DNA from: an uncultured Candidatus Saccharibacteria bacterium
Lineage (GTDB): Bacteria > Patescibacteriota > Minisyncoccia > Phycocordibacterales > PALSA-1337
Direction: 5' to 3'
Assembly: GCA_964467225.1 (NCBI GenBank)
Contig: CAYXPQ010000001.1
Location: 75,803-139,802 of the forward strand
Length of the DNA stretch: 64,000 nucleotides
A program made the position numbers and the translations under genes. Below the pieces are notes generated by a model. That model worked only from the letters and a program-made list of their open reading frames with translations, had not been told where the DNA came from and searched no databases. Below, one piece after another: positions 2,135 to 56,486 of the stretch; within the stretch, counting starts at the first letter, position 1, and each line of letters opens with the position of its first letter.

Positions 2135-5100
2135 ATGAAGAATATTATTAAAGTTTCTGTTTCAATATCTGTAATTTTTGTAGTTTTATTTGGTTTTAAT
2201 ATACAAATTTCAAATGCACAGACAAATTCTAATAAAGTTTTGAGTGGAGCTTGTATTTCTATAAACTCTTCTAAAACAATGAAAATTTCTTCCGGTAAAG
2301 TTTATATTAACGGAAAGGAATATGAATATACTGGGGGCGGCGGAAGTTTTCCAAGTAATAAATCATTTCCACTTTATGTAAAAACTCTTTATGGAAGTGT
2401 ATATAATCCATTGCCTGGAGAGGGTAAGGATGGTCCAGATAGTCTTAAGATTGGATATGTTACTACAGGTAAAGATAGTTTGATTACTGAAATAGTAAAT
2501 GTTTCACCATGGTGTGAGAATTATTCTTATGATATTGCAACAACAGCTACTACAAGTAAACCAGTAATAAAGGTTATTAGTCCAAATGGAGGAGAAGTTT
2601 TATATGTTGGCCAAAGTTATCCTGTAAAGTGGAGTGACAACAGTGGAGATGTAAGCAATGTATCTATTTCCCTAATAGATTACAATTCTGGAACGGAATT
2701 TAATCTATCTGGAGATGTCTCATCTAGGTCTTCAGGTGTAGATGGAACAAGCGTTTATTCACTACTAATACCGTCATATATAACAAAGAATATGACAACT
2801 ACAGGTGATGGTAACAATAAATTTAAAATTAGAATTTATTCTAAAAATGGAGCGGTAGATTCAAGTGATAACTATTTTACTGTAAGATCTACAACAACGC
2901 CATCTCTAAAAGTTATTAGTCCAAATGGTGGTGAGACACTATTAATGGAAGGATATTATCCTATAAAATGGTATGACACTAGGGATAGAAGCGATGTTAC
3001 TATATTTCTCGTTGATTACAAAAGCGGAACTGCAATACCTTTAGCTAGTAATGTATCTGTTACTGCATCAGGTATTGATGGTATAAGTACTTATACAGTC
3101 CAAATTCCAGGATATGTAGAAAGAAAGTTGGCAGTCGATACTAAGAGCTTTAAAATTAGAGTTGATTCAACTGGCGGGAGTGATTTAAGTGATGATTACA
3201 TTACTATAGCTTCTGCAACTTCTTCCAGCATAGACACCCCATGCTTTACTTTTAACAGAGACCTATCATACGGATCAGAGAACAAGGAAGTTGACTATCT
3301 AGTCAAAGCTCTACTTAAAGAAGGATCAATAAGAAATCCAAATAATCTAACTATTAAAAGTGAGAAATTTGATGAATCAGTATTAACTGGTGTAGTAGCA
3401 TTTCAAGGTAAATACGGAATACCACAAACAGGATATGTAGGACCTCTTACAAGAGCGATGTTAAATCGACTTTATGGTAATTGTAATCAGAGTGAGAATA
3501 TTTCTGCTACATTAAAGTTAATTAGCCCAAATGGTGAGTTATATAATGTTGGCTCAAGAGTTCCAATCTCATGGAATCACAATGGTAATCTAAAGAGTGT
3601 AACAATAGATATAATGACTGCTGATGGACAGAAAACATTACTTTCTCAATCATATAATGAAAATCCAGGAAGATATTCTTTCTTAGTAGCTACAGGAACA
3701 CCAGAAGGTAAGTATATGGTAAGAATAAGAACAACCAACTATTCTTCAAGTAATTATTTCTATGTGGGTAGCACAGGAAATTCTGCGACAAACTCAAAAT
3801 GTGATTTTGAGGTAAAATCACCAATAGCAAATTCTAAGGTTAACTTCCCACTGACAGTAACTGGTACTATAGATAGAAGTAAGTCAAATAATGCTGGATG
3901 TAGATGGCAAACATTTGAAGGGGTAGCTGGTACGGCCAAATTTTACGCTTATCTTACAGAAAAGAATCGTGATGGAACAATGAAAGGCTGGACATCAATA
4001 GGTGATTCAGTAATTATGAATCTAGAGAAAGTTAACTCAGATAAATCAAATTTTAATGTCAGATTTAATTTTCCGGAGGGAGGTTTCCAAATTAATAATC
4101 CAGTTAAGATTGTGTTTACAGAGGAAAATCCAGCAGCAATACGTCCAGCACTTACCTTTGAATTACCATTATACTTAGATACCTCAGGAAATTCTGCGAC
4201 AACAACTCCAAACATCTCCAAGGCTCAAATATCTGGTTCATGTGTTCTGAGTGCACCATCTGGTTATGCCATTACTTCAGGTAAATTAAAATTAAACGAT
4301 AAAGAATATTCATTTAGTGGTGGAAGAGGGTCATATTTGCCAAGTAATAGAGTAATGCCAGTATATCTATATATGCCAAGAGAGGGTTATGTGGCAAGTT
4401 ACGTATATTTGAATCCACCAGTAAATGTAGGGGTTGGAACAACTACAGCATTGAAGATTGCAACAATTGTTACAGGAGATAAAGGGGTTATAAGAAATAT
4501 TTATAATCTAAATCCTCTTTGTCAAAGTTATACAAATATCAAAGCTGAAGCAACATCAGTGCCTACAACTAATCAAACAATAAAGGTTATAAGTCCAAAT
4601 GGTGGGGAAGTGTGGCAGATAGGTAAGACATATGAATTTAGATGGAGTTCAAGTGGAATAGATAAGGTAATGATCAATCTTACAAATCAAGATAATAATT
4701 TTGGATATGGTACATTGAATGCTATTGATGCGAGAACAGGAAGGGTCACCTATACACTTCCAAATACTCTACCGGCAGGTAAATACAAAGTATTTATGGT
4801 GGATGCATCAGGTAAAACAATTACAAATGATTCAAGTGATAATTATTTCACAATAGTAAATTCAACATCAGGATATACACCAACTCCATCTACTACATAC
4901 ACTCCATATCCAAGCTATACACCTACATACTCACCAACTCCAAGTCAAACATATAATTCATACCCAACAGCAACCTACACCTCATCACCAACATACACAA
5001 CTAGCCCAACATATTCATCTACTCCAACATATACCTATACACCAAGTCCAACTTATTCATCATCACCTACAGCAACATATTCACCTAGTTATACATACAG

Positions 5101-11718: not shown

Positions 11719-12066
11719 ATGTCACGATCACTTAATAAAGGACCATACGTTGAAGAGCGACTCTTGCAAAAGATAGCTGGAAAGAAACCTACTGAAACTG
11801 GGGTTATTAAGACATGGTATAGAAGAAGTCAGATTTCTCCTGAAATGGTCGGATTTATCTTCGGAGTATACAATGGGAGACAGCATGTTGATGTACTGGT
11901 CTCAGAGGATATGGTAGGACACAGATTGGGTGAATTCGCTCCTACTCGTAAATTCCTTAGACATGGAGGTAAAATGCAGAAAGAGCTTGAATTAAAGGCT
12001 AAGGAGAATGAAATGGCAGCTGCAAAATCAGCAAAGGAGGCTGCAGCAGCACCTGCTAAAAAATAA
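11719..12066 (+). CDS. rpsS: 30S ribosomal protein S19 (with Ala/Lys-rich C-terminal extension)
   Basis: S19 core GPYVEERLL...[13 protein letters not shown]. It carries an extra ~25-aa A/K/E-rich tail. Confidence 0.92.
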
Positions 12067-12075
12067 TTTAAATAT

Positions 12076-12417
12076 ATGATTACCGCATCACTAAAAAATT
12101 ATAGACAATCACCACGAAAGGTAAGAAGTGTGGCTAATCTTGTACGCGGTAAATCAGTCGATCAGGCTTTAAATACTTTGAATTTCTTGAGTAAAAAAGC
12201 AGCAGACCCACTTTATGGTTTGTTACTTTCTGCAATTGCTAATGCCAAGAATAATTTTAAAATCGAAAAGGACAATCTTATTATAAAAGAAATACGAGTA
12301 GATGCTGGCTATATATTAAAGCGTCGAATGCCAAGAGCTCGAGGGAGTGCATTCCCAATTAACAAAAGAACAAGTCATGTAAATTTGGTACTTACACCAA
12401 AGCCAGTTAAAAAATAA
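12076..12417 (+). CDS. rplV: 50S ribosomal protein L22
   Basis: 113 aa with L22-like sequence and conserved position. Confidence 0.92.
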   Translation: MITASLKNYRQSPRKVRSVANLVRGKSVDQALNTLNFLSKKAADPLYGLLLSAIANAKNNFKIEKDNLIIKEIRVDAGYILKRRMPRARGSAFPINKRTSHVNLVLTPKPVKK

Positions 12418-12421
12418 TTTT

Positions 12422-13102
12422 ATGTCACATTCAGTACACCCATATTCACATAGATTAGGAGTAATACGAGACTGGAAGAGTCGATGGTTCTCTCTTAATA
12501 AAGGATATAGAACAGCCTTGAAGACTGATTTAATTATTCGTGAATTTTTAATAAAAGAGCTTAGAAATTTCTATTTAGCTGATATACATATTGAAAGAAA
12601 TAGAAAGACTTTGAGAATTGTTATTAAAACTTCAAGACCAGGTATGATAATTGGTCGTGCAGCAGATGGAGTTCAAAAGTTAAATCAAAAGATTCTTAAT
12701 TTATTAAAGAAAAAGGGTATAGATCTAGTTGGACAAGAATTGAGATTAGACATTGAAGAAGTTAAGAACCCAGAATCAAATGCATCAATCGTAGCTATGA
12801 TGGTTGCAGAAGGTCTTGAGAAGAGACTTCCATTCAGAAGAGTTCTAAAACAAACTCTTGAGAAAGTTCTGGCTAACAAGGAGGTAAAGGGAGCAAAGAT
12901 CAAACTTGCTGGAAGACTTGGTGGTGCAGAAATGGCAAGACAAGAGGATTTAAAGAAGGGTCAAATTCCACTTCAGACATTGAGAGCTGATATTGACTAT
13001 GCTCGTGAGAAAGCCCATATGACATATGGAGATATCGGTATAAAGGTCTGGATATACAAAGGTCAAATTTTCAGTAAAGATATTAAGATAAATAATAAAT
13101 AA
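12422..13102 (+). CDS. rpsC: 30S ribosomal protein S3
   Basis: 226 aa with KH-domain S3 sequence. Confidence 0.94.
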   Translation: MSHSVHPYSHRLGVIRDWKSRWFSLNKGYRTALKTDLIIREFLIKELRNFYLADIHIERNRKTLRIVIKTSRPGMIIGRAADGVQKLNQKILNLLKKKGIDLVGQELRLDIEEVKNPESNASIVAMMVAEGLEKRLPFRRVLKQTLEKVLANKEVKGAKIKLAGRLGGAEMARQEDLKKGQIPLQTLRADIDYAREKAHMTYGDIGIKVWIYKGQIFSKDIKINNK

Positions 13103-13107
13103 CTACC

Positions 13108-13539
13108 ATGCTTTTCCCTAAAAAAGTAAAATTCAGAAAGTGGCATACTGGCAGGACAAATGCTAAGAAGCTTGCTAATGGTGTAGAGACAAGAGGTGTT
13201 AAATTATCTTTCGGATCATTTGGTCTTAAGGCGCTATCATATGGAAGACTTTCATCAAATGAGATTGAAGCAGCAAGAAAGGTTATGGCAAGATATGCTA
13301 CAAAGTCAGGAAAGGTATGGGTTAGAATTTTCCCTGATAGACCATTTACACAGAAGCCACCTGAAGTTAAGCTAGGAAAGGGTAAGGGAGATCCAGTCGG
13401 ATTCGTAGCCCAAGTCAAAGCTGGTCGTGTACTCTTTGAAATTGACGGAGTTGATGATAAGGTAGCACAAGAAGCTCTGAGAAAGGCTGGTACAAAGATT
13501 TCCGTTAAGACAAAGGTTGTTAGTAGAAATATGATGTAA
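13108..13539 (+). CDS. rplP: 50S ribosomal protein L16
   Basis: 143 aa with L16-like sequence. Confidence 0.94.
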   Translation: MLFPKKVKFRKWHTGRTNAKKLANGVETRGVKLSFGSFGLKALSYGRLSSNEIEAARKVMARYATKSGKVWVRIFPDRPFTQKPPEVKLGKGKGDPVGFVAQVKAGRVLFEIDGVDDKVAQEALRKAGTKISVKTKVVSRNMM

Positions 13540-13552
13540 TTCAAACAAAATT

Positions 13553-13729
13553 ATGAAAGAACTAAAAAATAAAACTCCACAAGAATTGAAAAAACTCGTA
13601 GCAGAGAAGCGAGAGGTTCTTCGTAATTTTAGATTTGGAACTTTGGGTGGAAAGTCAAAGAATGTAAAGCTTGGACATACAACAAAGAAAGAAATCGCAA
13701 GAATAATGACAGAATTGTCACTTCGATAA
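13553..13729 (+). CDS. rpmC: 50S ribosomal protein L29
   Basis: 58-aa ORF MKELKNKTPQELKKLVAEKREVLRNFRF... It is below the length cut-off of the ORF track and was found by manual translation. L29-like coiled coil at the conserved position. Confidence 0.85.
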   Translation: MKELKNKTPQELKKLVAEKREVLRNFRFGTLGGKSKNVKLGHTTKKEIARIMTELSLR

Positions 13730-13745
13730 AAAGTAAAATAATTTT

Positions 13746-14006
13746 ATGGATAAGAAAAATACACAAAATAATACAGTATCAAAAAGAAAGATTCTTTCAG
13801 GAGTTGTTGTGTCCGACAAAATGAAAGATACAATAGTAGTTCTTGTTGAGAGATTTGTTAAGGATAATAAATACAAGAAATACATTACTCTTAGAAAGAG
13901 ATACAAGGTACATGATGCTGGAAACACAAAGAAGATCGGAGACAAAGTCTCAATAGAGTCATGTAGACCTATTTCAAGACATAAGTCTTTTAAAGTAATT
14001 TCATAA
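13746..14006 (+). CDS. rpsQ: 30S ribosomal protein S17
   Basis: 86 aa with S17-like sequence. Confidence 0.92.
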   Translation: MDKKNTQNNTVSKRKILSGVVVSDKMKDTIVVLVERFVKDNKYKKYITLRKRYKVHDAGNTKKIGDKVSIESCRPISRHKSFKVIS

Positions 14007-14016
14007 CAAAACTACC

Positions 14017-14388
14017 ATGATACAACCACGTTCAATAGTAAGAATAACAGATAATTGCGGAGCAAAAATTGGCCGTATATTCAAAGTTCTTGGTAGCTCA
14101 AAGAAGAGATATGCTGAGATAGGAGATTTGGTAATACTTTCTGTACAAAAAGCAGAACCAAGAAAGACAATTAAGAAAAAAGACGTTCTTCAAGGTGTAG
14201 TCGTAAGACAAGTAAAAGCTTATAGAAGGAAGGACGGTTCTTATATTAGATTTGATGAGAATTCAGTAGTTATTCTTGAAAAGGGAAAGAAGGAGCCAAT
14301 TGCAGGTCGTATATTCGGTCCAATTCCAAGAGAGATTGCTGAGAAGGGCTTCCAGACAATTGCTTCTAAAGCACCAGAAATAGTATAG
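14017..14388 (+). CDS. rplN: 50S ribosomal protein L14
   Basis: 123 aa with L14-like sequence. Confidence 0.95.
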
Positions 14389-14401
14389 TAATTTAAATAT
14401 C

Positions 14402-14620
14402 ATGAAAATCAAAAAGGATGACAATGTAATAGTTTTGACTGGAAAGGACAAGGGTAAGTCTGGTAAAGTTTTAAAGTCTTTCCCCAAGGAGAATAAAGTT
14501 CTAGTATCAGGAATCAATGTATTTAAGAAACACCAAAGACCAACAAAGCAAGGTCAGAAGGGACAAGTGGTAGAGAAGAGCGGTCCTATTCATGTTTCTA
14601 ATGTTGCATTAAAGAAATAA
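14402..14620 (+). CDS. rplX: 50S ribosomal protein L24 (short, KOW domain only)
   Basis: 72 aa with KOW motif [15 protein letters not shown], at the conserved position. Confidence 0.88.
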
Positions 14621-14621
14621 T

Positions 14622-15191
14622 ATGAAAACACATACAGCAAAAACTACATTTGAGATGAATAAGGAGTCTTTCAAGGCTTTGAAGGAGAAATTTGGTCTCA
14701 AAAATCCTATGCAAGCACCAATGCTTTCTAAGGTTGTTATTAGTACAGGTACTGGATCAATTAAAGACAAAAAGAAGATTGAGCTTGTTGCCGATAGACT
14801 TTCAAAAATAACAGGACAGAAGCCAGCTCCAAGATCAAGCAAGAAGTCAATCGCTTCATTCAAAGTTAGACAAGGAGATCTCGTCGGTTATCAAGTAACA
14901 CTAAGAGGTAAGAGAATGTGTGATTTTATTGATAAGCTTATTCATATAGCACTCCCAAGAACAAAGGACTTCCGTGGTATTACAAAGACTGCAGTAGATC
15001 AGATGGGTAACTACACTCTAGGAATCAAAGAGCACACAATTTTCCCTGAGACAGCAGATGAAGATCTAAAGGATGTATTCGGATTTGGTATTACAGTAGT
15101 GACAACATCAAAGAGCAAGGAACAGACATTAGCTTTCATGGAGTATCTCGGTTTCCCATTTAAGAAAGAAGAGGTAAAGAAGAGGGGGTAG
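14622..15191 (+). CDS. rplE: 50S ribosomal protein L5
   Basis: 189 aa with L5-like sequence. Confidence 0.94.
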   Translation: MKTHTAKTTFEMNKESFKALKEKFGLKNPMQAPMLSKVVISTGTGSIKDKKKIELVADRLSKITGQKPAPRSSKKSIASFKVRQGDLVGYQVTLRGKRMCDFIDKLIHIALPRTKDFRGITKTAVDQMGNYTLGIKEHTIFPETADEDLKDVFGFGITVVTTSKSKEQTLAFMEYLGFPFKKEEVKKRG

Positions 15192-15194
15192 GTT

Positions 15195-15224
15195 TGACTA
15201 GAAAAATTACATTTGTTAATATTT
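15195..15224 (+). promoter_or_regulatory. sigma70-like promoter TTGACT-N17-TAATAT immediately after rplE
   Basis: Near-consensus hexamers. It directs plus-strand transcription into a ~60-nt unit that ends at a hairpin and T7 run. Confidence 0.45.
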
Positions 15225-15228
15225 GATC

Positions 15229-15292
15229 ATGAAAGAAACTTTCGGCCGTGGTTTATATACCACACTTGGCGGAGGGTTTTTTTCTTTTAATC
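15229..15292 (+). ncRNA. candidate small RNA / terminator module (could also encode a 25-aa peptide MKETFGRGLYTTLGGGFFSFNLFL)
   Basis: Bounded by the promoter at 15195 and the hairpin GTGGT-ttatat-ACCAC plus gagggTTTTTTTc. It is convergent with the minus-strand gene 15287..15706. Confidence 0.3.
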
Positions 15293-15706
15293 TATTTCTG
15301 TAGGAAATACTGACATTAAATGCTTATTTCTGTTCCTTATATTCTCAGTTATTTGAATACAAAATAGTTCTCCACTTTTTGTTTTTCCGAGAAACCTATG
15401 TAATTTTTCAGAAGATTTATTTGGATTTATTTTTGAAATAGGTTCAATACTCGAATTTTTAATTAAATCCAGAGCACATTCATAATACCTTAATCTTCGA
15501 GTGCGATCATTTGGATTTTTTGTTCTGATATGATCCCAAAAATAGTCAAGAAATATTTTATCCTTATTAAAGTATTTGGATCTAATATAAGGTCTTCTTT
15601 TAGTTTTTGAACATAGTTTTTTATAAATTGATAATGCTTGCGGGTATACATCTTTATAACTTGTACCAGATAACTTTTTAATTTTTGCTTCGTAAAATTT
15701 CCTCAT
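15287..15706 (-). CDS. hypothetical small basic protein encoded antisense within the spc ribosomal operon
   Basis: 139-aa ORF (420 nt without a stop) in AT-rich DNA. It is very K/R-rich. An upstream perfect -35 TTGACA is present on the minus strand near 15752–15757. No family could be recognised. Confidence 0.55.
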   Translation of the reverse strand: MRKFYEAKIKKLSGTSYKDVYPQALSIYKKLCSKTKRRPYIRSKYFNKDKIFLDYFWDHIRTKNPNDRTRRLRYYECALDLIKNSSIEPISKINPNKSSEKLHRFLGKTKSGELFCIQITENIRNRNKHLMSVFPTEID

Positions 15707-15814
15707 TCACTAACCATAACAAAAACACTATTAAGAAAAGCTTAAGAAAAGTGTCAAAAAACAGCATTGGGAAATGGAGGGGTGAGGGTGTCTACATTTA
15801 TTTTATTGAGTAGT

Positions 15815-15843
15815 TTGACTTATTTTTGGCTATTTGATAGTAT
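15815..15843 (+). promoter_or_regulatory. sigma70-like promoter TTGACT-N17-TAGTAT upstream of rpsN
   Basis: Lies in the 245-nt non-coding region before rpsN. It shares its hexamers with the rpsS promoter. Confidence 0.45.
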
Positions 15844-15951
15844 AACTCCACGTTCTAGAAAACAAAGAAATACAAGGAATTAGCGACTTGAAGCATTAAC
15901 CCAGCGAAAACAATAGGGTGAAGCTAACTAGTCCTCATTTTTATTTAAAAT

Positions 15952-16137
15952 ATGGCAAAGACATCAGTAAAAGCACGAGCAGCAAAGACCCCTAAATTCA
16001 AATCAAGGGTAGTTAGACGATGCTTCCGATGCGGAAGAAAGAATGGATATATGAGGGATTTTGATTTGTGCCGTATTTGTTTCCGAGAGTTTGCTAACGA
16101 AGGAGTTATTCCAGGAATAAAGAAATCATCATGGTAA
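15952..16137 (+). CDS. rpsN: 30S ribosomal protein S14 type Z (zinc-binding)
   Basis: 61 aa with C..C...C..C motif CFRCGRKNGYMRDFDLCRIC. Confidence 0.93.
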   Translation: MAKTSVKARAAKTPKFKSRVVRRCFRCGRKNGYMRDFDLCRICFREFANEGVIPGIKKSSW

Positions 16138-16523
16138 CAGACCCAATCGCAGATTTAATAATAAGAATTAAGAATGCTAGCGATGCTGGCAAGGCTTCGA
16201 TAACAGTTCCTTATTCAACTCTTAAAGAGAATATTTCACATGCTTTATTAAAAGGTGGATATATTACTTCAGTAGAAGTTAAGGGAAAGAAAATCGACAA
16301 GACTCTAGAAATAAATTTAGCTTATATTGGCGGCGAACCAAGAGTTCATGGTATTGATAGAATTTCAAAGCCATCAAGACGCTTATACCAAAAGTCAAAG
16401 GATATAAGAATGTTTAAGAGTGGTTTTGGAAATATTGTATTCTCAACACCACAGGGAATACTTCTTGATGCTGATGCAAAGAAGCTTAAGGTCGGAGGAG
16501 AGATTTTATTTAAAATCTGGTAA
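16131..16523 (+). CDS. rpsH: 30S ribosomal protein S8
   Basis: 130 aa with S8-like sequence. Overlaps rpsN by 7 nt. Confidence 0.93.
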   Translation: MVTDPIADLIIRIKNASDAGKASITVPYSTLKENISHALLKGGYITSVEVKGKKIDKTLEINLAYIGGEPRVHGIDRISKPSRRLYQKSKDIRMFKSGFGNIVFSTPQGILLDADAKKLKVGGEILFKIW

Positions 16524-16533
16524 TAAAAATATT

Positions 16534-17067
16534 ATGTCAAGAATAGCAAAAAAACCTATAGCAATACCAGAAAAGACAGAAGTTACATATTCTGCTGGGG
16601 TTCTAACTGTTAAGGGACCTTTAGGAGAAGTAAAGAAGACATTAAGACCAGAGATCAATGTTGCTATTGCTAACAATGAAATTACGCTTATTCCTTCAAG
16701 ACAATCATTGGATGTTCTAGCTCTATGGGGAACATATGCTTCTCATATTAGAAATATGTTTGAGGGCGTTCACAAAGCTTTTGAGAAGAAGTTAATAGTT
16801 GAAGGTATTGGATTCAAGTCAGATATTAAAGGTAAAGAAGTTCATCTTGCACTAGGTTTCTCACATCCAGTTATAAAGGCAATTCCTGATGGTCTAAAGG
16901 TTACTTCAGAAAAAAACGTCATAACAGTTTCTGGTATCGATATAGAGAAAGTAGGTCAATTTGTTGCTCAGATCAGAGCGCTGAAGAAGCCTGAACCATA
17001 CAAGGGTAAAGGAATTCGATATAGTGATGAAGTTATAAGACGAAAGCAAGGTAAGAAGTCTGTATAA
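16534..17067 (+). CDS. rplF: 50S ribosomal protein L6
   Basis: Start chosen at MSRIAKKPIAIPEK (ATG 16534). The longer ORF from 16420 overlaps rpsH in another frame. Confidence 0.9.
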   Translation: MSRIAKKPIAIPEKTEVTYSAGVLTVKGPLGEVKKTLRPEINVAIANNEITLIPSRQSLDVLALWGTYASHIRNMFEGVHKAFEKKLIVEGIGFKSDIKGKEVHLALGFSHPVIKAIPDGLKVTSEKNVITVSGIDIEKVGQFVAQIRALKKPEPYKGKGIRYSDEVIRRKQGKKSV

Positions 17068-17079
17068 TAAATAATTTGT

Positions 17080-17403
17080 ATGAATACAAGCAAACAAAAA
17101 CAATTAAAGATTGCAAGACGACATAATAGAATTAGATCAATTCTATCAGGTACTTCAGAGCGACCAAGACTTTCTGTCTTTAAGTCAAACAAATTCATAT
17201 ATGCTCAGATTATTGATGATACAAAGGGCCATACTCTTGTTCAATCTTCATCAGATGATGCAAAGAAAGTCGGAAGTGATATTGCAAAAAAGGCAAAAGC
17301 ACTTAAGATTGTAAAAGTAGTATTTGATCGAGGAGGATATCTTTATACAGGCAAGATAAAAGCAATAGCAGATTCTGCTAGAGAGGGTGGACTTGAATTT
17401 TAA
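17080..17403 (+). CDS. rplR: 50S ribosomal protein L18
   Basis: 107 aa with L18-like sequence. Confidence 0.92.
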
Positions 17404-17415
17404 GATTTAAATAAT

Positions 17416-18033
17416 ATGGAACCAGAAATAATTACAACTGAACAAAAGCCAATAGAAAGTAAGCCTGTAGAGAAGGTAGCTGATAAGCCTTTTGATAATA
17501 GACCTCCACGAGATAACAATCGTAGATCTGGTGGTAAGAGACCACAAAGAACAGATAAAGAGAGAGTTAAGCCAGAATTTGATACAAAAATCATTGCAAT
17601 AAGAAGAGTGACCCGTGTTGCTTCAGGAGGAAGAAGATTCACATTCTCTGTAGCAGTAGTATCTGGAGACAAAAAGGGTAGAGTTGGTGTTGGACTAGGA
17701 AAGGCAGGGGATACATCTCTTGCTATTGATAAAGCTACAAGAAACGCCAAGAAAAACATGATAAAGGTTACTCTTTCACCAGCAATGACAATTCCACATA
17801 TGGTAGAGGCAAAATATTCAAGTGCAAGAGTTATGATTATGCCAGCAAGAGGAAGAGGAGTAGTAGCAGGAAGTTCAGTAAGAAATGTTATTGAACTAGC
17901 AGGTATAAAGGATGTATGTGCTAAACTCCTTTCAGGAAGTAAGAATAAGCTTAATATAGCAAGAGTAGCCATAAAGGCTCTTTCCAAGCTTTCAAAATAT
18001 CCAAGAACAGGATCAGTAGTAGCAGCTAAATAA
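17416..18033 (+). CDS. rpsE: 30S ribosomal protein S5 (with ~50-aa basic N-terminal extension)
   Basis: S5 dsRBD and C-terminal domain (IIAIRRVTRV..GGRRF.F...VV.GD). The N-terminal extension is K/R/P-rich. Confidence 0.93.
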   Translation: MEPEIITTEQKPIESKPVEKVADKPFDNRPPRDNNRRSGGKRPQRTDKERVKPEFDTKIIAIRRVTRVASGGRRFTFSVAVVSGDKKGRVGVGLGKAGDTSLAIDKATRNAKKNMIKVTLSPAMTIPHMVEAKYSSARVMIMPARGRGVVAGSSVRNVIELAGIKDVCAKLLSGSKNKLNIARVAIKALSKLSKYPRTGSVVAAK

Positions 18034-18046
18034 TTAATACACTACC

Positions 18047-18490
18047 ATGCAACTCCATAATTTAATTCCAAAAACAAAGAATAAGAAAACGATGACAGTC
18101 GGCCGAGGAGGCAAAAGAGGCAAGACTTCTGGAAGGGGTACAAAAGGCCAAAATGCTCGTGCTGGACACAAGAAGAGACCAGAGCTAAGAGATTTTATTA
18201 AGAGAATCCCAAAGATGCGAGGTCGTGGTGTAAATTCTAATAAGTCTATTAATGATAGATTTATTCCTATTAACATTAAAGACATTGAAATGGTATTTGA
18301 GGCTGGATCTCAAGTTAATCCTAGTACTTTAATTGAGAAGAAGCTTATTTCAACAATCGATGGTAAAATACCTGCAGTTAAGATCCTTGGTGCAGGTGAT
18401 ATTACTAAAAAGTTACAATTTAGTGGTTGTAAAATTTCAGATCAAGCAAAAGCAAAGATCGAGAAAGTTGGAGGTTCAGTACAGTTATAA
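18047..18490 (+). CDS. rplO: 50S ribosomal protein L15
   Basis: 147 aa with Gly/Arg/Lys-rich L15 N-terminus GRGGKRGKTSGRGTKGQNARAG. It follows rpsE directly with no rpmD between them. Confidence 0.92.
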   Translation: MQLHNLIPKTKNKKTMTVGRGGKRGKTSGRGTKGQNARAGHKKRPELRDFIKRIPKMRGRGVNSNKSINDRFIPINIKDIEMVFEAGSQVNPSTLIEKKLISTIDGKIPAVKILGAGDITKKLQFSGCKISDQAKAKIEKVGGSVQL

Positions 18491-18502
18491 TAGAATAAAA
18501 AT

Positions 18503-19774
18503 ATGAATGGATTTCTATCAAAAATAAGCATTGTTCTAAAAGATCCAACAATGCGCAAGAGAATTGCGTTTACTATAGTTGCACTTATAGTTTTTAGATT
18601 ATTTTCAGCTATTCCAATTCCAGGTATTGATGTGGCAAGTCTTGAGAGGTTATTAGCTGGTAATCAGTTTTTTGGATTGCTAGATATTTTCTCAGGAGGA
18701 GGTATATCTAGACTTTCTATTGTGATGCTTGGAGTCAGCCCATTTATTACAGCTTCTATTATTATGCAATTGCTTGGAATGATGATTCCAAAAATGAAAG
18801 CAATGATGCAAGAAGAAGGGGAAATAGGTCGTCAAAAGATGTCTCAGTATTCTAGATTGATTTCTGTACCACTCGCTGCTATTCAAGCTTTTGCTTTTAT
18901 AAGTCTTTTCCAAAGTCAGAATGTTATTCCAGAACTTTCTGGAATGATGCTAGTGGTAAATATTATAATTATCACTGCCGGTTCAGTAATGTTAATGTGG
19001 CTTGGTGAACTTATATCAGAGTTCGGTATAGGAAATGGAGTATCTTTGATTATATTTGCAGGTATAGTTGCTGTCTTGCCTACAAGAATAATGCAATTCG
19101 TAGCCGGATTTGATCCAGCACAGTTGCCAGCTTATCTTCTATTCCTTCTGATATCACTTGTTGTGATTGTTGGAGTAGTTGTTATAACTGAAGCAGAAAG
19201 ATCAATTCCAGTCACTTATGCAAAGCAAGTTAGAGGGAATAAAGTTTATGGTGGTACCTCAACATATTTACCACTTCGTTTAAACCAAAGTGGAGTTATT
19301 CCAATCATATTTGCACTTTCTATACTTCTTTTCCCTCAAATAATCTCAAATGTTCTCTCAAAAGTTTCAAATCCCGTTATTGCAGATACCGCTCGATCAA
19401 TTTCTGATTTTCTAAATGCTCCTTGGCCGCATGCAATAATCTACTTCTTATTAGTATTTATATTCACATATTTCTATACTGCTGTAACTTTTGATCCAAA
19501 GTTGATATCAGAGAATTTGCAAAAGGGTGGAGCATTTATACCAGGCGTTAGACCAGGTGAATCTACTATGAATTATTTAGGTAAAGTAGTTACAAGAATA
19601 ACTTTAGTAGGTGCTTTATTTCTAGGCTTTATTGCTGTGCTACCATTGGGTATTCAAGCTTTCACAGGAACTCAAACCTTGGCAATAGGCGGAACAGCTC
19701 TATTGATTGTGGTGTCAGTTGTATTGGATCTCATCAAAAAGATTGATGCTCAGGCCTCAATGCGAGAATACTAG
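18503..19774 (+). CDS. secY: preprotein translocase subunit SecY
   Basis: 423 aa polytopic membrane protein with SecY sequence. Confidence 0.95.
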   Translation: MNGFLSKISIVLKDPTMRKRIAFTIVALIVFRLFSAIPIPGIDVASLERLLAGNQFFGLLDIFSGGGISRLSIVMLGVSPFITASIIMQLLGMMIPKMKAMMQEEGEIGRQKMSQYSRLISVPLAAIQAFAFISLFQSQNVIPELSGMMLVVNIIIITAGSVMLMWLGELISEFGIGNGVSLIIFAGIVAVLPTRIMQFVAGFDPAQLPAYLLFLLISLVVIVGVVVITEAERSIPVTYAKQVRGNKVYGGTSTYLPLRLNQSGVIPIIFALSILLFPQIISNVLSKVSNPVIADTARSISDFLNAPWPHAIIYFLLVFIFTYFYTAVTFDPKLISENLQKGGAFIPGVRPGESTMNYLGKVVTRITLVGALFLGFIAVLPLGIQAFTGTQTLAIGGTALLIVVSVVLDLIKKIDAQASMREY

Positions 19775-36488: not shown

Positions 36489-36575
36489 GGAGAGATGGGT
36501 GAGTGGTTTAAACCAGCGGTTTACTAAACCGCCGTTCTTTAATTAGAACCGCGAGTTCGAATCTCGCTCTCTCCG
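36489..36575 (+). tRNA. type II tRNA-Ser-like gene with apparent anticodon ACU (unusual)
   Basis: Acceptor GGAGAGA/TCTCTCC, anticodon arm GCGGT-TTACTAA-ACCGC, long variable arm gttct-ttaat-agaac, T-arm GCGAG-TTCGAAT-CTCGC and discriminator G. Confidence 0.65.
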
Positions 36576-55654: not shown

Positions 55655-55726
55655 AGCGGGGTAGAGCAACGGTAGCTCGTCAGGCTCATAACCTGAAGAT
55701 TGTCGGTTCGATTCCGACCTCCGCAA
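55655..55726 (+). tRNA. tRNA-Met (anticodon CAU), initiator-like (A1·A72 unpaired)
   Basis: Cloverleaf with anticodon loop CTCATAA, T-arm GTCGG-TTCGATT-CCGAC and acceptor AGCGGGG/CTCCGCA with a 1–72 mismatch. Confidence 0.7.
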
Positions 55727-55783
55727 CAAGTATTAATTTAAAAACTGGCGGATTCTGGCTTTTTTTGTTATATTTTGTTTTAT

Positions 55784-55860
55784 GTCGGCGTAGCTCAGTT
55801 GGCTAGAGCGTGGGACTCATAAGCCCAAGGTCGAAGGTTCGATCCCTTCCGCCGACACCA
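55784..55860 (+). tRNA. tRNA-Met elongator or tRNA-Ile2 (anticodon CAU), CCA encoded
   Basis: Acceptor GTCGGCG/CGCCGAC, anticodon loop CTCATAA, T-arm GAAGG-TTCGATC-CCTTC and a genomic CCA. Confidence 0.75.
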
Positions 55861-55918
55861 TAGAATGGTTATTATATATTTTGAATTTATACAATATTAT
55901 GTATAATAGGTTATAAAT

Positions 55919-55992
55919 GCGGTCGTAGCTCAATTGGTTAGAGCACTCCCCTGTCACGGGAGAGGCCGCGGGTTCGAGTCCCGTCGACCGCG
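55919..55992 (+). tRNA. tRNA-Asp (anticodon GUC)
   Basis: Acceptor GCGGTCG/CGACCGC, anticodon arm CTCCC-CTGTCAC-GGGAG and discriminator G. Confidence 0.85.
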
Positions 55993-56024
55993 CATTCGTA
56001 AAATAAATAAGTTATAATACAAAT

Positions 56025-56405
56025 ATGAAACATAAAGTAGCAAAGATCCTTCTTGTAGAAGATGACCCCACACAAAGACTGGCTTTAGGTGTGAATCTTG
56101 TAAATGAAGGATTTGTTGTTTACAATGCTAAGAATGGAGAAGAAGGATTACTATATGCCTTAGGAGAACATCCAGATGTGATTCTTCTGGATATTGTGAT
56201 GCCAAAGATGAATGGGTTTGAAATGATAAAGCAGTTACGAGCAGATGAATGGGGTAAGAATGCAAAAATAATAATTTTGACTAATTCGCCAGACCTGCAA
56301 AATGTTGAGAAGAGTATAAATAGTGAGGTCTATGAATATATTATAAAAAGTGATACAACTACTGAGAAGATTATTCAGAAAGTTAGGGATTTGTTATTAG
56401 TATAA
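56025..56405 (+). CDS. response regulator receiver domain protein (CheY-like, stand-alone)
   Basis: 126 aa with ILLVEDDP...DIVMPKMNG. It is embedded between tRNA-Asp and tRNA-Thr. Confidence 0.8.
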   Translation: MKHKVAKILLVEDDPTQRLALGVNLVNEGFVVYNAKNGEEGLLYALGEHPDVILLDIVMPKMNGFEMIKQLRADEWGKNAKIIILTNSPDLQNVEKSINSEVYEYIIKSDTTTEKIIQKVRDLLLV

Positions 56406-56410
56406 TTTAA

Positions 56411-56486
56411 GCCGACGTAGCTCGGTTGGTAGAGCACTCCATTGGTAATGGAGAGGTCATCGGTTCAATCCCGATCGTCGGCTCCA
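56411..56486 (+). tRNA. tRNA-Thr (anticodon GGU), CCA encoded
   Basis: Acceptor GCCGACG/CGTCGGC, anticodon arm CTCCA-TTGGTAA-TGGAG and T-arm with TTCAATC loop. Confidence 0.85.

Follow-up and report, generated by a model that had tools for sequence, protein, structure and literature searches.

A basic-protein gene family of Patescibacteria and its convergent hairpin RNA: an apparently mobile cassette between rplE and rpsN

In the type I toxin-antitoxin systems txpA/RatA and bsrG/SR4 of Bacillus subtilis, a convergent antisense RNA overlaps the 3' end of the toxin mRNA, and the toxin is a membrane peptide of <60 amino acids (aa). SymE/SymR of Escherichia coli is a type I system with a larger, RNA-cleaving toxin; SymR overlaps the 5' end and the start codon of symE, and SymE has an AbrB-like fold. 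In the type III systems ToxIN, CptIN and TenpIN, the RNA comes as an array of 34-36-nt repeats, upstream of the toxin gene and in one operon with it. Here we describe a two-gene cassette in a 64,000-nt stretch of DNA (the window) from an uncultured Candidatus Saccharibacteria bacterium (contig CAYXPQ010000001.1, positions 75,803 to 139,802). The cassette lies between the ribosomal-protein genes rplE and rpsN and pairs a gene for a 139-aa basic protein with a convergent gene for a hairpin RNA of ~55 nt. We found that the protein gene and the structured RNA gene co-occur strictly, co-evolve across the family and move together, and the pair may be a toxin-antitoxin-like module with an RNA antitoxin.

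The module is most like a hybrid, with the layout of a type I system, the protein-RNA partnership of a type III system and a BECR-like protein. As in type III systems, a predicted endoribonuclease adjoins a structured non-coding RNA, the two co-occur strictly, and some loci carry tandem RNA units. Unlike the type III RNAs, this one consists of one hairpin, has a promoter to itself and lies downstream of the protein gene on the opposite strand; the protein, too, differs, having no match to ToxN/AbiQ-type models (PADLOC). As in txpA/RatA and bsrG/SR4, a convergent small RNA with a strong promoter would overlap the 3' end of the putative toxin mRNA, and the two genes would share a bidirectional terminator. 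In those systems, however, the toxin is a small hydrophobic membrane peptide, whereas here it would be a soluble, basic, globular protein of 139 aa; in addition, the predicted overlap is confined to the terminator hairpin, and both the sequence and the structure of the RNA are conserved. SymE/SymR is a precedent for a soluble toxin of >100 aa held by a cis-encoded antisense RNA, but here the overlap would be at the 3' end rather than at the start codon, and the predicted fold is BECR-like rather than AbrB-like. The module differs from type II systems in that no co-transcribed protein antitoxin is adjacent: the window cassette has one open reading frame (ORF) only, and about 80 loci share no neighbour family. 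We found no description of the module in the literature on toxin-antitoxin systems and small RNAs of Patescibacteria, on PBECR domains or on insertions in ribosomal operons of the candidate phyla radiation (CPR).

The protein gene and its hairpin RNA

The gap between rplE and rpsN in the window is 760 bp, and the single long ORF inside it is at 15287-15706 on the minus strand, so the gap and the opposite-strand ORF reported in the preliminary description of this DNA are real. The ORF is not noise, as had been argued from its length: we found at least 183 homologues of the protein at E <= 0.01, the top one 88% identical, as well as 246 clusters at E <= 1e-3 in an exhaustive search of 1.84 billion cluster representatives and relatives at 345 loci in a scan of one genome per GTDB species. 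The cassette has the following features.

15189-15753: inserted cassette, the blastn block homologous to a copy in an unrelated genomic context
15194-15222, plus strand: small-RNA promoter, with -35 TTGACT (15194-15199), a 17-nt spacer, TG (15214-15215) and -10 TAATAT (15217-15222)
15229-15285, plus strand: small hairpin RNA of ~55 nt, from the match to covariance model R1, folding, covariation and a strand test
15287-15706, minus strand: gene for the basic 139-aa protein; the Patescibacteria family is uncharacterised and its predicted fold BECR/RelE-like
15713-15721, minus strand: extended -10 of the protein gene, TGTTATGGT, 6 nt before the ATG, read from the sequence
15731-15752, upstream of the protein gene: a tandem pair of 11-nt direct repeats, TTAAGAAAAGC / TTAAGAAAAGT, from a repeat search

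The hairpin, at about 15231-15284, was overlooked by the terminator scanner. Folding of 15192-15290 gave -27.5 kcal/mol (z = -4.75), and 0 of 200 shuffles were as stable. The outer stem of the window RNA is interrupted by an internal G.G and a 3' bulge, 5 bp form the inner stem, the loop is UUAUAU and the U7 run is at 15277-15283. The two genes are convergent, with 2-4 nt between the predicted end of the RNA and the stop codon of the protein gene; from its sequence, the hairpin would be a bidirectional terminator for both the rplE unit and the cassette gene.

The 110 nt past the stop codon of the family gene are alike in virtually all of about 85 loci. Alignment A3, which covers 76 loci in the orientation antisense to the protein gene, has the consensus TTGACA, 16-18 nt ending in TTTGnTATnAT, about 7 nt, and then GAAAAAGnCUUUCGGCCGUGGUUUAUAnACCACACnUGGCGGAAGGUCUUUUU. 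The -35 hexamer is TTGACA in 44 of the 76 loci and TTGACN in 60, the promoter matches the sigma-70 consensus at 9 or more of 12 positions in 67, and the TG extension is present in 56. The plus-strand promoter and ~60-nt hairpin unit seen earlier in the window alone are conserved in these 76 loci, have covariation support and are the partner of the gene.

RNAalifold on the 70 distinct cores found 15 pairs, with compensatory changes in 11. Canonical pairing was present in 95.4% of paired cells compared to 87.4% in shuffles (0/500), it fell to 31-58% when the partners were slid, and 104 double-change cells were observed with 31 expected. The stems vary among GUGG/CCAC, GAAG/CUUC, GCAGC/GCUGC, GAGG/CCUC and GGAG/CUCC. 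The helices are canonical in 95.4% of cells when read in the RNA sense and in 84.8% when read in the mRNA sense, with 122 G.U pairs relative to 11 A.C pairs. Hence, selection acts on the strand with the promoter and the U-run, which is the plus strand of the window, opposite the protein gene.

The internal loop UUCGGCC ... GGCGGA and the apical loop hardly change between distant lineages, a degree of conservation that exceeds the needs of a terminator or a pure antisense RNA. The hairpin is also conserved more strongly than the coding sequence in the alignment of the window with its nearest homologous locus (L006). A peptide ORF within the small RNA (an ATG followed by 24 codons in the window) was rejected, as its 'ATG' is CTG, GTG, TAG, AAG or ACG elsewhere. 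Rfam gave no gathering-level match for the small RNA, and the best score was that of ctRNA_p42d (16.4 bits relative to a cut-off of 50, E = 0.41).

R1, the covariance model of the small RNA, had one match in the 64-kb window, at 15229-15285 on the plus strand (77.1 bits, E = 7e-18; runner-up, 14 bits). Over 588 kb of family loci, it had 89 matches at E <= 1e-3, nearly all directly 3' of the gene on the other strand, including matches next to members that share just 32-36% identity with the window protein. In 405 kb of related ribosomal DNA without the gene, R1 had one strong match, in L095, where a complete RNA gene with its promoter directly follows rplE; this locus lacks the protein gene and has a MazF-like gene next. 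We saw no stand-alone family gene without the RNA; the sole RNA-less copy, with no hairpin downstream, is the fusion to an HNH-STAND protein described below. Copies of the RNA alone together with the lack of stand-alone genes without it are the asymmetry expected of an antitoxin. Extra or tandem RNA units were present in L029, L067, L071, L075 and others, and several loci have two tandem hairpins.

In one locus, L057 (3857-4402), the gene is intact and the RNA is still adjacent, but it is upstream and divergent instead of downstream, so there is no overlap at the 3' end. The divergent RNA therefore favours a role in trans that is directed at the protein. As a separate observation, the L057 contig and flanks are G+C-rich, and the hairpin unit has 53% G+C; the locus may reflect transfer outside the typical AT-rich CPR genomes, or a mis-binned contig.

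Judged from the sequence, the promoter of the small RNA would be far better than that of the protein gene, which has an extended -10 only, a few nt before the start codon; the motif TTTGnTAnnnT is present 6-8 nt before the start codon in many loci. Since this extended -10 stands just before the ATG, a leaderless or near-leaderless mRNA is implied. The 'perfect -35 TTGACA' previously assigned to the gene (15751-15756, minus strand) was discarded: it is at the edge of the cassette, it reads TCAGCA in L006 and it is 33 nt from the conserved extended -10. Upstream repeats of ~11 nt, (A/T)TTTTATC(A), are found in most of L013-L017, L022, L024, L026, L033, L048, L051, L056 and L069, and their window counterpart is CTTTTCTTAAG, in two copies; in all of these loci the repeats come just before the extended -10 of the protein gene. 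These repeats may be operator sites for autoregulation of the family gene.

Protein family and predicted fold

Most homologues of the 139-aa protein are 50-65% identical to it and 134-144 aa long. Nearly all of their hosts are metagenome-assembled genomes (MAGs) labelled Patescibacteria, Parcubacteria, Peregrinibacteria, Doudnabacteria or similar, and the members bear the source label 'hypothetical protein' with no Pfam domain. The window has no paralogue of the protein. We found no match for the 139-aa protein at E <= 10 in Pfam, NCBIfam, PHROGs or PADLOC, no match for 49 family members in curated protein libraries, and no match to sequences of the PDB, even by profile. A profile search with a wider alignment (A5) gave 331 proteins, and none of the best 120 of these has a Pfam domain; hence, this search revealed no bridge from the family to a known superfamily. 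A tblastn search of 50,697 phage genomes returned noise only (E >= 0.8).

In a diverse alignment of 49 members, F52, R71 and S132 never vary; R37, K50 and G107 are each shared by 48, S43 and K63 each by 46 and H59 by 44. The AlphaFold2 model made from 49 sequences (pLDDT 96, pTM 0.89) is a globular alpha/beta domain in which helices precede a four-stranded antiparallel sheet: helix 17-34, a beta-hairpin at 40-52, helices 54-60, 65-72 and 75-84, and four strands within 90-135. Foldseek found nothing below E 0.3 in the PDB; among predicted viral structures, the top matches were phage polyvalent, MuF-C and 'Nuclease' proteins (E 4.6e-4 to 2.7e-3, probability 1.0, TM 0.51-0.60). Hence, the Foldseek search that had been suggested for this protein gave weak phage polyvalent/MuF-C matches among viral structures and none from the PDB.

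The BECR RNases (RelE/ParE, colicin D and PBECR/MuF-C) resemble the predicted structure in having helices ahead of an antiparallel sheet of four strands, with a His in one helix and a Ser in the last strand. According to Iyer et al. 2017 (PMC5512222), the active site of PBECR and colicin D combines a helical His (or Arg) with a C-terminal Ser/Thr. In our model, H59 is in helix 54-60 and the invariant S132 is in the last strand, positions that fit this configuration; H59 is replaced by Arg in the copy fused to STAND. The differences are that the protein lacks Pfam matches to the BECR, PBECR1-5, MuF_C, RelE/ParE or colicin D profiles, has an extra N-terminal helix and beta-hairpin (residues 1-52), scores weakly in structural comparison and has no protein antitoxin or immunity gene nearby. 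Therefore, the model points weakly to a BECR/RelE-like, predicted RNase-type protein, and membership of the BECR superfamily is not established because no sequence profile ties the protein to it. The protein is basic (K+R 23%, D+E 10%), from which nucleic-acid binding had been proposed; we consider composition weakly informative, and the evidence from the fold points instead to a BECR/RelE-like RNase domain.

The family domain was also found as the C-terminal part of P0177 (L166, 203-2260), a 685-aa protein with HNH and a STAND (NACHT/AAA_16) NTPase. A second protein, P0204 (736 aa), has an NTPase and a C-terminal family domain, with no HNH match in the Pfam scan. The architecture of HNH, STAND and family domain is typical of conflict systems.

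Cassette mobility, proposed function and rival explanations

The nearest homologue of the window protein (P0001, in L006) is encoded between genes for an ABC transporter and a membrane protein. Using blastn, we aligned window positions 15189-15753 with L006 positions 3954-4518 at 87.4% identity over 565 bp, with nothing beyond. The shared block covers the RNA with its promoter and the protein gene with the 47 bp that precede it, and in alignment A2 the homology breaks off in both loci where the convergent neighbour has its stop codon. From these boundaries, the 565-bp cassette appears to be a self-contained, horizontally mobile unit of two genes.

Family presence is patchy, most members are in unrelated contexts, and several genomes have two or tandem copies. 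Neighbouring ORFs over about 80 loci belong to no shared family, with the biggest cluster covering 9 loci that are mostly duplicates of a single context. The S10-spc ribosomal gene cluster holds 5 of 80 GTDB loci at three junctions: L007, L015 and L026 at rplE/rpsN (as in the window), L014 at rplB/rpsS and L010 at rpsS/rplV. Looking for the insertion in other genomes, as had been advised, thus revealed it at the same junction in L007, L015 and L026; these are contiguous with the window across ribosomal genes at 66-77% DNA identity, and the rplE/rpsN insertion was probably inherited in all four. The ribosomal enrichment, with three of the five loci sharing ancestry with the window, is not clearly above chance. 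The idea that the module is specific to the ribosomal operon did not survive, given the unrelated contexts of most members; the site is incidental, one landing place among many, at a pre-existing boundary.

Among recurrent neighbours of the family gene are genes whose products resemble, by eye, four-helix-bundle proteins of the 23S-rRNA-intervening-sequence type (L009 2851-3348, L047 4693-5082, L037 3142-3615 and others). These seem to be another type of small gene that scatters through CPR genomes.

The locus had been described as a possible toxin-antisense or autoregulatory module. A module of the toxin/antisense-RNA type is the leading explanation, and autoregulation of the ribosomal operon is without support. 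We judge the chances to be about even that the cassette is a toxin-antitoxin-like module with an RNA antitoxin. Under this explanation, the cassette would have inserted into a terminator/promoter boundary that already existed between rplE and rpsN; the 139-aa protein would be a metal-independent RNase or an RNA-binding effector that is harmful when free; and the ~55-nt hairpin RNA would be transcribed convergently, and abundantly, from its near-consensus sigma-70 promoter. The RNA would neutralize the protein mainly by direct binding through the conserved internal loop/bulge, as in type III systems, and might be a pseudo-substrate of the protein. The binding route is the most likely because the unpaired nucleotides are conserved, tandem units exist and L057 has its divergent arrangement. 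As a second layer, the RNA would match the 3' end of the protein mRNA with perfect complementarity and could act as an antisense RNA in the style of type I. In addition, the hairpin would end the rplE transcription unit and shield the protein gene from ribosomal read-through, and read-through from rplE would yield more of the hairpin in the RNA sense, stopping before the protein gene.

More tentatively, we propose that this is a new class of protein-RNA conflict module, essentially confined to Patescibacteria, in which a BECR-like RNase is checked by one convergent, sequence-conserved, protein-binding hairpin, possibly a pseudo-substrate, and which travels as a 0.5-0.6-kb cassette with its own bidirectional terminator and is able to settle between ribosomal genes. 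If so, CPR/Patescibacteria, in which few non-coding RNAs or conflict systems have been characterized, gain a new family of proteins and a new structured small RNA, and the design of the module, a BECR-type protein with a single convergent hairpin RNA, is unusual for a toxin-antitoxin system. The covariance model together with the protein profile lets both partners be annotated in hundreds of MAGs, and the pair is small (coding sequence, ~420 nt; RNA, ~55 nt) and so easy to test.

Several observations weigh against the toxin-antitoxin explanation. The family profile and the RNA core pattern found nothing in IMG/VR (2.9 million viral contigs were scanned with the profile), H59 is substituted in 5 of the 49 diverse members, and the RelE-type toxins among the structural neighbours of the model resemble it weakly. 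Others fit better with a non-toxic ribonucleoprotein or regulatory pair, in which the protein is an RNA-binding or processing factor (chaperone, processing enzyme or sensor), the hairpin is its cognate RNA and the function is accessory. Identity of 50-60% across phylum-level labels makes the family fairly well conserved, unlike many fast-evolving toxins. In L010 (3680-5561, Portnoybacteria MAG), the family gene begins 16 bp after rpsS on the same strand, before rplV, so it should be co-transcribed with the highly expressed S10 operon, which is awkward for a toxin; the other strand still has its hairpin RNA (4406-4463). In the STAND fusion, the family domain is at the C-terminus, the usual position of the sensor, with HNH the likely effector, a layout that suggests a binding rather than a killing role. 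The strict adjacency of gene and RNA and the sequence conservation of the unpaired RNA nucleotides suit such a pair as well, and PMC5512222 describes MuF-C of phage Mu as an inactive, probably RNA-binding PBECR domain. A non-toxic pair accounts poorly, however, for the patchy distribution, the varied contexts and the movement as a discrete cassette, for orphan RNAs with no RNA-less stand-alone gene, for the conserved catalytic-type His and Ser, and for an insertion site common to MazF-like and NYN genes; we consider it unlikely.

Less likely still is a mobility module, in which the protein is a nuclease or recombinase that spreads the cassette, by free-standing homing or by hairpin-directed transposition, and the hairpin, as DNA or RNA, is its recognition site. 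Free-standing homing endonuclease genes of phages are small genes in the spacers between conserved genes, are patchy among close relatives, and spread by what is known as intronless homing, which insertion between highly conserved genes recalls. The cassette is likewise a small, patchy gene unit, a discrete 565 bp found in unrelated contexts, and it has entered three junctions between conserved ribosomal genes (rplE/rpsN, rplB/rpsS and rpsS/rplV), while the strand-biased G.T pairs are compatible with a folded, single-stranded DNA hairpin, a further point against an RNA antitoxin. However, there is no family match to a Y1_Tnp, transposase, integrase or homing endonuclease, nor a homing-endonuclease fold or motif; the same search did detect a true Y1_Tnp gene at the rplE/rpsN junction of L132. 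Unlike IS200/IS605 elements, the cassette has a hairpin at one end only and no terminal repeats, and we found no convincing terminal inverted repeats or target duplications around 15189-15753. In contrast to homing genes, it has an obligatory RNA partner, and most copies are not between conserved genes; there is no consistent target site, the orientation of neighbours is mixed (35 co-directional, 23 convergent), and the five ribosomal loci are not clearly beyond chance given their shared ancestry. Flanking the hairpin on the strand under selection are a near-consensus promoter and a U-run, which also argue for an RNA product.

Two simpler accounts concern the RNA. The RNA could act only as a type I-style antisense, pairing with the overlapping 3' end of the mRNA for degradation by RNase III with no contact between protein and RNA. 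The convergent genes do share a bidirectional terminator and the RNA is fully complementary to the mRNA 3' end, but pairing needs no particular sequence, whereas the loops are nearly invariant while the stems covary; moreover, the RNA of L057 is upstream and divergent without a 3' overlap, and the protein is not a small hydrophobic peptide. We hold this antisense-only role to be improbable. The hairpin might also be an ordinary bidirectional intrinsic terminator between convergent genes, next to a 'promoter' that is a chance match in AT-rich DNA (the window has 34.7% G+C). A- and U-tracts do flank the hairpin on both sides, and promoter-like sites are not enriched in 14000-17000 (8 found, 10.3 expected from shuffles); since the region has no excess of such sites, promoter matches in the window mean nothing without comparative support. 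That support comes from the hexamers, spacing and TG extension conserved in 76 loci. A plain terminator also lacks near-invariant loops, a conserved promoter of its own and a tie to a single gene family, whereas this hairpin shows stronger conservation than the coding sequence, and R1 finds it beside this gene family only, with the one strong gene-less exception of L095. This account is very improbable.

The rplE/rpsN junction and the rpsN leader

The row of S10-spc ribosomal genes from rpsS to secY spans 11719-19774 of the window (ORF list). On either side of the cassette, it has these features.

14622-15191, plus strand: rplE (L5), from the ORF list, with its TAG stop at 15189-15191; final gene of the upstream ribosomal transcription unit
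15815-15843, plus strand: rpsN promoter, TTGACT-17-TAGTAT with TG; ancestral and outside the cassette, with counterparts in the insertion-free L096, L098 and L102
15880-15935, plus strand: structured leader of rpsN-rpsH, TTAGCGACTTGAAGC ... GAAGCTAACTAGTCC, from alignment A6; ancestral and outside the cassette
15952-16137, plus strand: rpsN (S14, zinc type, 61 aa), from the ORF list; opens the downstream ribosomal transcription unit

We compared the junction with that of 80 metagenomic relatives (L086-L165; RplE 57-90% identical), none of which has the family gene; RplE of the window is 84-90% identical to that of related contigs. The spacing from rplE to rpsN ranges from 71 to 1412 bp, and in many relatives rpsN is not within 3.4 kb. 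Six spacers of 126-207 bp are 'empty' (L086, L093, L096, L097, L098 and L102), and each has a TTGAC.-17-TAGTAT / TAGGAT promoter and a conserved leader, with a terminator as well in L096 and L098. The rpsN promoter and leader of the window (15815-15935) are homologous to those of the empty spacers. Hence, the ribosomal cluster already consisted of two transcription units, and the earlier claim that the insertion split the spc operon was overturned. Similarly, the promoter said to have come with the insertion and to feed rpsN does exist, but the insertion did not create it. The universal S10-spc cluster is thus divided into two transcription units at rplE/rpsN in this lineage, with the boundary serving as a landing pad for small selfish genes.

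The leader before rpsN-rpsH reads (U)AGCGAUUGGAAGC, a hairpin of variable length and AGCUAACCAAUCC, includes a conserved GAUUGGAAGC...GCUAACCAAUC element and is also present in L007, L026 and others. In alignment A6 (19 sequences), P1 covaries, with compensatory changes in 4 of 9 pairs, P2 is invariant and the apical hairpin varies in length. The rpsN 5' untranslated region folded alone gave z = -0.03, so the structure of the leader is visible only by comparison. Rfam had no match to it, at the gathering level or in E-value mode. Possibly, the leader is an element, specific to this CPR clade, through which a ribosomal protein (S8 or S14) regulates its own synthesis.

Elsewhere in the 64-kb window, Rfam detected at the gathering level a transfer-messenger RNA (tmRNA) gene and seven tRNA genes (28419-28827 (-), 31877-31950, 34917-35005, 36489-36575 and 55655-56483) and no other families.

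The longer spacers carry cargo, often on the opposite strand: solo PemK/MazF-like genes, ORF6N, NYN, a GerE/LuxR regulator, an IS200-like Y1 transposase and an aspartyl protease. Hence, the rplE/rpsN junction is an insertion hot spot in this lineage. At this junction, solo MazF-like and NYN genes are faced by a near-consensus promoter that lies on the other strand and is aimed at their 3' end (L095 1060-1135 (+), L105 4070-4150 (+) and L089 2300-2385 (+)). In two of these loci a hairpin follows the promoter, which is TTGACA-17-TATTAT in L095, with CCCCAC..GUGGGG and a U-run, and TTGACT-17-TATACT in L105. In these genomes, pairing with a convergent small RNA may be a general feature of solo RNase-type genes.

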